From the NCBI GenBank assembly GCA_963555995.3, contig OY821641.1, forward strand, positions 3,392,001-3,456,000: a stretch of 64,000 nt of DNA, written 5' to 3'. Shown here piece by piece: positions 1-35,094 of the stretch. Position numbers and translations under genes: made by a program. The stretch is from Vicinamibacteria bacterium (lineage in GTDB: Bacteria > Acidobacteriota > Vicinamibacteria > Marinacidobacterales > Marinacidobacteraceae). Each line of letters begins with the position of its first letter. The first letter of the stretch is position 1. The notes beneath the pieces were generated by a model. The model saw only the letters and a list, made by a program, of their open reading frames with translations. It had not been told where the DNA came from and searched no databases.

Positions 1-3000
1 CGACTCCCAGAACGCCCCCACGTCCGGCCCCGCCGGGAACCGGCACGCCATCCCCACGATCGCCACCCGCTCGTCCTCCCGAAGACCCGGCAACACGGGC
101 GCCCGAACCAAATCCTTCGCCGGACCTCCATCCCCGAACTCCCGCGCCAGGTGCGTACCCAGCCGCGCCGCGTCCGGATGGTCGAACACCGCCGCGTTCG
201 ACACCGTGAGCGCCCCTCCGAACGCCCGATTCAACCGGTTCCGCAGCTCCACCGCCATCAGGCTGTCCATCCCCAACTCGAAGAAGCCCGCGTCCACCGC
301 CGGCGCCGTCCGCAGCCGGAGCACCGAAACCAGTTCCTCCTGCACGAACCGGATCAGCGCCCCCTCCCGCTCCGCAGCCGACGACGCCCGCAGCCGTCCC
401 GGCAGATCCCCCGCTTCCTCCCCAGCCTGCTTCCCGCCCCGGCCGATCAACTCCTCCAGCAGCGGAGAACCCGACGCGAGCCGTGACCAGTCCACCGACA
501 CCGCCAGGCTCGCCCCCACGTCCTCCTGGAGCAGCCGCGCGAACGCAGAAAGCCCCCGCTCCGGCGTCATCCAACCGATGCCGAGCGCGCCCCACTGTTT
601 CCCGATCCGCTCCCGCTGCTCCTCCGCCTCCCCTACCTCGGACCACGCACCCCACCCAATCGCCTGACCCGTCAACCCCAGCGCCCGCCGGTGGCGCGCC
701 AACTGGTCCAGGAACGCATTCGCCGCCGCGTGGTTCGCCTGACCCGCGTTCCCCACCACCCCCGTCACGCTGGAGAACAGCACGAACAGGTCCAACGCCC
801 GGTCCAGAGTCGCCCGGTGCAACCGCCACGCCCCCAGCACCTTCGGCCACAGCACCTTCTCGAAGCGTCCCCAGTCCTGGTTCACCAGCGCCGCGTCCGA
901 CAGCACCCCCACGCTGTGGATCACTCCGCCCAACGGCGGCAACTCCGCATCAACCCGAAGCAGCATTTCTTCCACCGCCGCCCCGTCCGTCACGTCCGCG
1001 AGCTCCACCCGCACTTCCACCCCGCGCTCCCGCAGCTCCTCCACCACCGCCTCCGCTCTTGCGTTCGGCGCGCGCCGACCGTTCAGCACGATGGCCCCCG
1101 CGCCACGCTCCGCCAGCCAGCGCGCGACCTCCAATCCGATTCCGCCCAGACCTCCCGTCACCAGGTAGCTCCGGTCGCCGCGCAGACGACCCCTCGCCAA
1201 CGCCGACGGCGCCAGCACGTTCTTCCCCACGTGGCGCGCCTCCCGCATGAACTCCAGCGCCGCACCTGCCTCCGACAGCGGCCAGCGGGTGAACGGCAGG
1301 GGCTCCACCTCGTCCCCCTCCATCCGGGCGACCACGGCACGCAGCACCGAACCGGCTCGACCCGGCTCCTCGCGCGTCACCCGATCGAGGGCCAGCACCA
1401 GATACCCCACGTCCGGTCGCGCCCTCTCCATCTCCACCCTGCTCCAGATCCCCCGTTTCCCGAGTTCCACGAAACGCCCCCCTTCCCGCAGACACCGGAG
1501 CCCGGCCTCGATGAAACCCGCCCCGGTCAGGCTGTTCAGCACCAGGTTCACCCCGTCTCCTCCCGTCGCCGCCAGCACCCCCTCGCCGAACCCCGGGTCC
1601 CGACTGTCGAACACGCCGTCCACCCCCAGCGAACGCAGCACGGCCTGCTTCCCCGCGCTCGCGGTCGCGAACACCTGGTACCCCGCCGCTTGCGCCAGCT
1701 TGATCGCCGCCTGACCCACCCCCCCGGTCCCCGCGTGGATCAACACCCGGTCCCCGGCCGACAGCCCGGCGAACTCGAACGCCAGGTCCGCCGTCACGTA
1801 GGCCACCGGCACCGTCGCGAGCGCGAGCGGCGACACTCCCGCCGGCGCGCGTACCAGCAGCTCCGCCCGCGTCACCACCTCCGGGCCGAAACCGCCCGGC
1901 GCAAAACCAACCACCCGCGCTCCGACCGGGAGCCCCTGCACCTCCGCACCCAACTCCAGCACCCGCCCGCACACCTCCCCCCCGAGCGTGGGCACCGCGT
2001 CCACCAGACCCATCCCGAGCATGACGTCCAGGAAGTTCACCCCCGACGCCTCCACCGCGACCCGAACCTCCTCCGTGCCCAGCGGGACCTCCGGAATCGC
2101 TTCCACCCGCAGGGTGGCCAGCGCTCCCCGCTCTCCCGGCGCCCACCGCCAGCCGCCCCCCTCGGGGAACTCCGGACGCCGCGACGCAGGCACCAGGCGC
2201 GCCACTCGCCGCGTCCCGTCACGCCACGCCGCCCGCGTCTCCCGGTCCGGGAACAACAACTCGTCCGCCAACACCGACACCGGGAACGCCGCGTCCGGAT
2301 CCAGGTCCAGCAGCCGCGGCTTCAGGTCGCCGTGCTCCAGCTCCACCACACTCCCGAATCCCCACAGCGAGGCTCCGCAGAGCGCCCCCGAGGTCTCCCG
2401 GTCCAGCACCTGTCCACCCCGCGTGACGAACCACACTCCCGACTCCGGCGGAACCCCGGCGTCCGCAATCCCCTGCACCAGCGAGAGCGCGCTCGAACCC
2501 ACCGTCTCCAGCTCCGCGGCGAGTTCCGCGGTCGAATGACCCGAGCCGTCCTCCCGGACCCCCTCCAGATGCACCACGCCGCGGAGGGGAACGTCCGCCC
2601 CGGGCTCTCCCGCAAGCGGAGCGAAGAGCCGGCGCCACGCCTCCCGGGTCGCCGGCGCCGCGGGACCGCGCACGACCACCTGACCCCGCCGGAGAAGTTC
2701 CGCCTCCAGGTCCGCACCCAGCGGCCCGCCCCCCGCCAGCACGAAGAGCCCCGGGGGTGTCCCCACCTCCGCCGGCCCGCGGGCCAGCATCACCATCTGC
2801 CCCCCCGCCGCCGTGACGAACGCCGGCGCGCCGAACCCGGCGTCGGCGAGCGCCCGCCGCCACACCGCCGGCCCCACGAGCGCGTGATCCGTCCGGTACG
2901 CGTCCTCGAACCGCCACCAACCGGGCAGCAGACCGAAGGTCAGATCCAGGAAGCCCTGCGGCTTCGTGCTTTCCACCACGAGCAGCAGTCCGGAGGGGGC

Positions 3001-35094: not shown

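Follow-up and report, generated by a model that had tools for sequence, protein, structure and literature searches.

How does a modular polyketide synthase (PKS) extend a chain when none of its modules appears equipped to load its own carrier domain? The question is raised by a 64,000-nucleotide stretch of the genome of a Vicinamibacteria bacterium (the window; G000:C1:3392001-3456000, where G000 is the genome under study), whose minus strand carries a giant modular PKS gene, gene A, that continues beyond the window edge and is followed by a second, gene B. The catalytic Ser and His pair of acyltransferase (AT) domains is kept in none of the 18 AT-like domains of the two proteins (0 of 17 in the extension modules). 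On balance we find it probable that the carrier domains would be loaded with malonyl in trans by an AT encoded outside the cluster, most likely FabD, building a predicted long, multiply methyl-branched lipid.

Gene A is contained in one minus-strand frame that runs without a stop codon from window position 35259 to base 1 (11,753 codons); in 50 shuffles of the same stretch the longest open frame averaged 534 residues, with a maximum of 790. The G+C content per codon position of the frame (0.78/0.55/0.87) is a coding pattern. In the genome the frame ends 12.4 kb past the window edge, at G000:C1:3379623, giving 15,878 codons from stop to stop and a protein of 15,823 residues counted from the in-frame ATG at 35094, the putative start. 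The initial annotation, which had placed all PKS motifs in a single unclosed minus frame and predicted a polypeptide of at least 11,698 residues, is thus borne out and surpassed; translation of the frames from the genome met no stop or frameshift in either gene, inside the window or beyond. The next frame, gene B, spans 19,621 codons and encodes 19,617 residues from an ATG preceded by GAGG; this ATG sits just ahead of the gene A stop codon, which gene B overlaps. Together the two genes hold 19 ketosynthase (KS) domains in 107 kb, or 2.8% of the genome, gene A constituting the first 44% of the line. Contigs from all four public runs examined bridge the A/B junction with zero differing letters; these contigs represent at most three samples of one study, possibly the source sample, and run X5 supplied short pieces only. 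No RNA run was among those listed with the sequence, which bears on expression neither way. A region of low depth (window 25482-26972, in run X1, of which about 73% was read) and a weak joint at 24389-27224 with a 23-base side in two runs were set aside and not used as evidence.

Domain calls combined Pfam searches of 12 pieces of the in-window protein with phmmer searches, using the line's own domains, over both proteins. In the window they delineate the loading module, six further modules and start of another that had been read initially (A1, A2-A7 and the KS start of A8; Table 1), but the description of the six as full does not stand: all six in-window ATs lack the catalytic Ser and four lack the small subdomain, so the enzyme must work differently than full modules would. 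Beyond the window, the reducing domains are dehydratase (DH) and ketoreductase (KR) in A8; DH, C-methyltransferase (MT), enoylreductase (ER) and KR in A9, B2, B4, B5 and B6; DH, MT and KR in B1, B3 and B7; KR in B8; and DH, ER and KR in B9. MT domains are present in 10 of the 17 extension modules, the repeated reducing and C-methylating pattern of SA1-type PKSs. Gene B stops after the AT of B10, which is a KS-AT unit only; this terminal KS plus degenerate AT, with neither acyl carrier protein (ACP) nor thioesterase, is an ending of SupA type. A search of gene A for thioesterase, adenylation and condensation motifs found none.

Full-length ATs are confined to three modules, A2 and A7, in which Ser is replaced by Gly (GHG), and A8. 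The A8 AT is the only one with Ser (GHSAGE), but its HAFQ motif has Gln in place of the catalytic His. The ATs of 14 extension modules (A3-A6, A9 and B1-B9) and of the terminal B10 are without Ser and are shortened by about 85-105 residues, the HAFH motif among them. In an alignment to CurL, the gap of the A4 AT corresponds to CurL residues 709-799, a region that AT structure identifies as the small subdomain. A1 has linker sequence only between KS and ACP, where the orthologous unit of relatives carries an AT. Read from the sequence, AT loss is graded, from a point change (A8) through Ser-to-Gly replacement (A2 and A7) and subdomain deletion (14 extension modules) to the absence of an AT (A1). 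The available part of PMC11907408 describes Ser as the nucleophile and His as the general base in all PKS ATs. A structural model of the A4 remnant (11-row alignment; predicted local distance difference test score 74.6, predicted template modelling score 0.81) keeps the linker and the hydrolase core, joined across the gap by a loop of low confidence, and superposes on the CurL KS-AT didomain with a template modelling score of 0.74; the remnants are likely a structural spacer between KS and DH. Contig confirmation took in the ATs of A2, A3, A4/A5 and A8: the Ser and Gln codons of A8 are matched in four of four runs, the A2 AT and the AT shared by A4 and A5 in three of four, and the A3 AT in two of four.

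The remaining domains are well preserved. Cys-His-His is present in 17 of 17 extension KSs; the A1 KS has Ser for Cys, as do all five first KSs of relatives examined, and the B10 KS has Asn at the second His. Catalytic motifs are found in all DH (His and Asp, 14/14), ER (GGVG, 9/9), MT (GAGTG, 10/10) and ACP (Ser, 18/18) domains. Among the 16 KRs, six have Tyr, eight His and two Asp (B3 and B7), the His being a family trait that recurs in 113 of 113 single-module proteins of 3,200-3,500 residues. Across the nine modules that have the longest deletion in common (A9 and B1-B8), ratios of non-synonymous to synonymous change (dN/dS; Nei-Gojobori, minimum-spanning-tree pairs) are 0.33 for KS, 0.40 for DH, 0.31 for MT, 0.33 for ER, 0.32 for KR and 0.51 for ACP; the AT remnant has a ratio of 0.46, with a summed dS of 1.1. 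Third-position differences are 1.5-2 times more frequent in seven of seven module pairs. Neutral change of 1% would introduce 8-14 stops into the two genes and change of 5% would introduce 54-78, against none observed; indel runs, 4-17 per module pair, are all in frame, which the construction of the comparison imposes, but the frames are open. Since nearly all motifs of the KS, DH, MT, ER and ACP domains are intact and dN/dS has stayed at 0.3-0.5 after the deletion, the assembly line is probably functional.

No stand-alone AT was found in the cluster (PF00698 over the whole assembly; tblastn). Outside the cluster, PF00698 retrieves only SwfA, SupA and FabD, and the only intact ATs in the assembly are FabD, the first AT of SupA (AT1) and the AT of SwfA. 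FabD passes the TIGR00128 model with its motifs intact. Its free-standing form, together with a precedent from romidepsin, would make it a likelier loader than the ATs embedded in SupA and SwfA; FabD1 is the trans AT of the romidepsin PKS according to the accessible text of bioRxiv 10.1101/2025.03.13.642940. The ACP of SupA is 67% identical to a module ACP, and the SupA AT therefore stays a candidate. Ser-type loading KSs are reported to decarboxylate, and that of A1 would decarboxylate malonyl-ACP to give an acetyl starter. Seventeen extensions would then yield a C36 backbone, to which in-line MTs (up to 10) would add 9-10 methyl branches. Collinearity predicts a hydroxyl at the A2 and B8 steps, a ketone at A3, B3 and B7, and a double bond at A5, A8 and B1. 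B10, with its KS and dead AT, would hand the chain to the free ACP encoded beside the cluster; release or transfer of the chain would fall to the neighbouring alpha/beta-hydrolase, and export of the product to the RND permease.

When 28 family genomes were searched for ATs, seven of them, G000 among these, gave at least five matches. In 20 stretches taken from six of the AT-rich relatives, a subset of their PKS-bearing contigs, 36 ATs reach at least 200 residues; Ser and His are both present in 31 of them, and the remaining five all lie in the last unit of their own cluster (the count leaves out one 83-residue fragment and includes two rows with the same sequence in different genomes). The G018 cluster is complete, comprises three genes (8,080 + 6,374 + 7,613 codons) and has a module order unlike that of G000, which agrees with the initial expectation of a module order of its own, G018 being the sole complete relative compared. 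SA1_PKSB (P0016, AAY00026.1) has Ser and His in three of three ATs. Among database relatives (37 of the 120 matches listed, picked by rank, a few of which fall outside the Sup clade of the KS tree), the pair is present in 79 of 97 complete modules and 28 of the 37 proteins are fully intact; the matches are pieces under 8,000 residues, proteins above about 8,000 residues lying outside the comparison. Another assembly supplies P0005, a protein whose domains show 85-100% identity to those of B1-B3 and whose ATs, three of three, carry the deletion seen there. Judging by these pieces, AT loss recurs in the Sup/SA1 lineage, and no other case seen among them covers a whole line. The large PKS pieces P0011, P0015, P0027, P0030, P0032 and P0033 have Ser-to-Gly, deleted or absent ATs beside intact ones, a pattern that reads as repeated AT loss in and near the Sup/SA1 lineage.

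In a FastTree phylogeny of 136 KSs, all 19 KSs of the line fall with SupA-type KSs and SA1_PKSB in one clade (support 0.998) and outside the trans-AT grouping, for which two AT-less proteins (P0036 and P0065) served as references and not a curated set. Together with the terminal KS and dead AT, as in SupA, this placement upholds the original proposal of a multimodular Sup/SA1 relative. For the loading KS, L038 (78%) and L039 (59%) are the nearest records that carry a title, and both are Acidobacteria metagenome-assembled genomes. The relatives L014 (G018), L021, L026, L029 and L033 start with ACP-KS(Ser)-AT-ACP; their loading AT motif is EASH, not HAFH, which suggests a different starter. Compared with this start unit, G000 has lost both the loading AT and the first ACP. 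In the AT tree (229 columns), the dead extension ATs of G000 nest with active ATs and apart from the terminal dead ATs (supports 0.81-0.90), and the B10 AT groups with the terminal ATs of relatives. An origin of the dead extension ATs as copies of the terminal dead AT was rejected because the former group with active ATs. The Ser codon of the relatives, AGC, is one change from GGC. Against 400 other genomes of the phylum (six candidates scored per genome), the B2 AT remnant has matches at 1e-40 in two, both in frames of single-module size.

The A4 and A5 KS and deleted AT are identical in DNA across 2,727 bases, and gene B contains exact repeats of up to 4,532 bases; by these repeats, modules were duplicated after AT deletion. 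B1-B7 have a GC skew of 0.35-0.40 and a TA skew of 0.21-0.29, the genome having a GC skew of -0.004 +/- 0.06 (821 long frames). The GRINS definition (for genetic repeats with intense nucleotide skews) applies to 8 of 11 duplicated regions, or 55,080 of 106,479 bases (blastn in place of the published aligner); its source, PMC8256042, states in the part available that GRINS are far commoner in cis-AT lines. We infer that the state without intact ATs arose from an ordinary cis-AT line and that duplicated modules and gene conversion spread it. About 47 kb of near-continuous GRINS-like sequence, with a third-position GC skew of about 0.63, occupies G000:C1:3331000-3378500 (L002-L005).

Loading by an outside AT has to be weighed against a line that loads itself from A8. 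The A8 AT might still work with Gln for His and load all ACPs of both proteins as one master AT: A8 alone combines the GQGSQW motif, GHS, the Arg and a full small subdomain, its branch in the AT tree (0.25) is within the range of active ATs, and its Ser and Gln codons are those matched in every run. However, the missing residue is the general base (PMC11907408, in the part cited above), its loss takes one base (CAG versus CAC) and a recent loss would look alike, A2 and A7 are likewise full length yet lack Ser, and it would be sterically demanding for a single embedded AT to serve 18 ACPs spread over two polypeptides. We regard such a master AT as unlikely. Less probable again is a line that makes no product, whether as an early pseudo-cluster after the loss of loading or as one kept for a non-catalytic role. 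The lack of any intact AT dyad and of an AT gene in the cluster would fit this, as would the apparent terminal frameshift of P0005 and the situation in same-genus genomes, 8 of 15 of which have single-module Sup copies only and three none at the cut-off, so that the cluster is dispensable in the genus. It is difficult to reconcile, however, with 107 kb free of stops and frameshifts despite the summed dS of the AT remnant, with in-frame indel runs in every module pair and intact motifs in the other domains, and with the duplication of modules after the deletion.

The neighbouring genes allow a further possibility, that no classical AT is needed and malonyl is shuttled by the free ACP and the alpha/beta-hydrolase, or that the ACPs malonylate themselves. 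The hydrolase has Ser-Asp-His-type motifs and travels with the cluster, and among the ACPs compared the free one diverges most, with no tblastn match in 16 related loci; but the same pair stands beside clusters with intact ATs and beside single-module SupA, and so needs no new role here, which makes this route improbable. An assembly artefact, in the AT lesions or in the module count, is very improbable: although the exact repeats of gene B are long, no contig spans an entire stretch and contig confirmation stops short of the ATs in A6, A7, A9 and gene B, the A/B junction and the ATs of A2, A3, A4/A5 and A8 are matched by contigs letter for letter, P0005 independently has the same deletions, and the lesions vary by module. 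The module count of gene B is less certain than the state of its ATs.

Loading in trans, most likely by FabD, in a functional line is the preferred account, and several observations weigh against it. A8 retains all other AT motifs, which would fit residual function. The genome is 93% complete, which leaves room for a dedicated AT in the part not assembled, and FabD is put forward by precedent and for its free-standing state. The B1 MT is possibly degenerate (Tyr at a later His), and the B3 and B7 KRs, with Asp, are likely inactive. Gene conversion can make dN/dS between paralogues reflect older signal, and synonymous counts are distorted by the strong base skew. P0005 breaks off within its third KR at an apparent frameshift, be it an error or real decay. 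Finally, some AT loss, in varied forms, occurs in 9 of the 37 large relatives, so the trait is not unique.

Comparison with known systems helps to place the line. Like G000, SA1_PKSB of the SA1 PKS from the Discodermia dissoluta symbiont is multimodular, has KS-AT-DH-MT-(ER)-KR-ACP modules and belongs to the same KS clade (its three KSs are 53-69% identical to those of G000); its three ATs all have Ser and His, whereas none of 18 keeps both in G000, which departs in this from the SA1_PKSB pattern of an active malonyl-type cis-AT in each module. SA1_PKSA is reportedly about 25,500 residues long, longer than the genes here, so that size alone is no record; its ATs may be degenerate too. Sup PKSs share with G000 the KS clade, a terminal KS and dead AT without ACP, a free ACP and an alpha/beta-hydrolase as neighbours and a His-type KR in methylating modules, but the excerpts of PMC4245539 describe them as small and monomodular, and their first AT is intact, whereas the G000 line has 19 KSs on two genes, 17 extension modules and no intact AT. 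Because it is not monomodular, we file the line as a multimodular relative and not as SupA; the SupA label itself follows architecture and the available parts of PMC3908369 and PMC4245539, no protein of that name being among the database matches listed. Trans-AT PKSs of the bacillaene and disorazole type resemble the line in having modules unable to load their own ACPs (judged from sequence only in G000, with A8 uncertain), in their in-line MTs and, at A1, in having only a linker between KS and ACP; they differ in that G000 has no cluster AT gene, keeps most of the AT fold, has its KSs in the cis-AT Sup/SA1 group and has its ERs in cis. Romidepsin (FK228) DepB and DepC likewise have no AT gene in the cluster and receive malonyl from the housekeeping FabD1 (bioRxiv 10.1101/2025.03.13.642940, same limit), but form two modules of a hybrid of non-ribosomal peptide synthetase and PKS, in contrast to 17 modules with decayed cis-ATs and near cis-AT relatives. 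Cis-ATs without the catalytic serine are reported in the bengamide, desertomycin and conglobatin lines and in that for gephyronic acid in the accessible part of PMC9301873; there they are rare, at least one per line, whereas in G000 all extension modules are affected.

It is thus fairly probable, on these sequence comparisons, that the line works like a FabD-fed AT-less PKS and descends from the cis-AT Sup/SA1 lineage. A broader reading, held tentatively and put slightly short of an even chance, is that a complete, working bacterial line has passed from cis-AT to trans-AT operation inside a single genus as each of its integrated ATs decayed step by step, with housekeeping FabD borrowed and no dedicated AT gene, that its modules preserve the stages of loss, and that the Sup/SA1 lineage does so repeatedly. 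The locus may capture a self-loading line turning into an externally loaded one. In the G000 lineage the catalytic pair is lost in 17 extension modules with purifying selection kept, and close relatives are intact, which provides a natural series for how an integrated AT is given up, for the role of the remnant and for the replacing enzyme. PKS engineering uses AT inactivation with complementation in trans, and the AT loss described here bears on it. The predicted product would be an unreported lipid of about C45. We found no description in the literature of a Sup-type PKS that is both multimodular and inactive in all its ATs, in a search outside which most subscription papers lie, and no demonstrated product for the Sup/SA1 lineage in the literature passages available.

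Table 1. Positions of the PKS genes, the modules of gene A and the genes inserted with them (window coordinates unless a genome position is given).
Feature	Position	Strand	Content or basis
Gene A, giant modular PKS	window 1..35094, continuing to G000:C1:3379623	-	Open frame and domain search
A1 loading unit	32869..34899	-	KS with Cys to Ser (DTASSS), no AT, ACP
A2	28297..32790	-	KS, full-length AT with Ser to Gly (30301-31200), KR, ACP
A3	25483..28227	-	KS, internally deleted AT without Ser, ACP
A4	18430..25419	-	KS, deleted AT (23212-23850), DH, MT, ER, KR (His type), ACP
A5	13366..18336	-	KS, deleted AT, DH, KR, ACP
A6	7420..13293	-	KS, deleted AT, DH, ER, KR, ACP
A7	148..7359	-	KS, full-length AT with Ser to Gly (4933-5793), DH, MT, ER, KR (His type), ACP
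A8 KS start	1..72	-	A8 AT just past the window edge, GHSAGE with HAFQ
Gene B	G000:C1:3379636-3320783	-	Entirely beyond the window
Alpha/beta-hydrolase	35591..36508	-	Family found beside Sup-type PKSs
Free-standing ACP	36764..37024	-	86 residues, PP-binding, E 8.5e-05
AcrB-family RND permease	37313..40510	-	Within the inserted block

The genes upstream of gene A appear to have arrived with it. The distance between lysJ and ino1 is 113 kb in G000 and 0.8-2.3 kb in four of four same-genus genomes without the giant cluster (G004, G008, G009 and G014), and the permease, the ACP, the hydrolase and both PKS genes are therefore taken as one inserted block; in G018 lysJ and ino1 are not adjacent. The alpha/beta-hydrolase, 48% identical to its counterpart beside the genome's single-module Sup copy, is likely a release or transfer enzyme, and the permease, homologs of which stand beside related clusters in 4 of 16 loci searched, is likely an exporter. 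The genome has a single phosphopantetheinyl transferase, distant from the cluster and 71-72% identical to those beside related clusters. It lies at G000:C1:1340239-1347275 (partly L035) with a hydrolase and an RND permease and without an adjacent modular PKS; because the same trio flanks the multimodular clusters of relatives, such a cluster may once have stood here. A further 6 kb on is a SwfA-type gene. The single-module SupA-type gene, with an intact first AT and with a free ACP and hydrolase on the opposite strand, is found at G000:C1:3252371-3264183 (L034), 58 kb from the end of gene B. The SupA-type and SwfA-type genes of the genome and its kinship to SA1_PKSB suggest a sponge symbiont; both gene types occur in sponge Acidobacteriota according to the available part of PMC9426513.

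Elsewhere in the window, a 1,471-residue protein (55173-59588) with reductase, AMP-binding, carrier and acyltransferase domains is encoded on the minus strand within 54140-62010, flanked by a NAD-dependent epimerase, a lactate-racemase-domain protein and a HAD hydrolase; this layout is that of the ElbD-like ether-lipid cluster of sponge symbionts in the accessible part of PMC9426513. It is followed by fabH at 62069-63139. LysW-type amino-acid biosynthesis genes (lysJ/argD, an amino-acid kinase, an argC-type reductase and lysX) occupy 40689-45203 on the minus strand. Two neighbouring secreted-looking proteins of 491 and 450 residues, for which no NCBIfam family was found, are encoded on the plus strand at 48736-51560, the second with a weak Tat signal match. 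Outside the window, G000:C1:3290000-3308000 (L007 and L006) has lower GC, and its translations resemble, by eye, restriction-modification and transposase genes.

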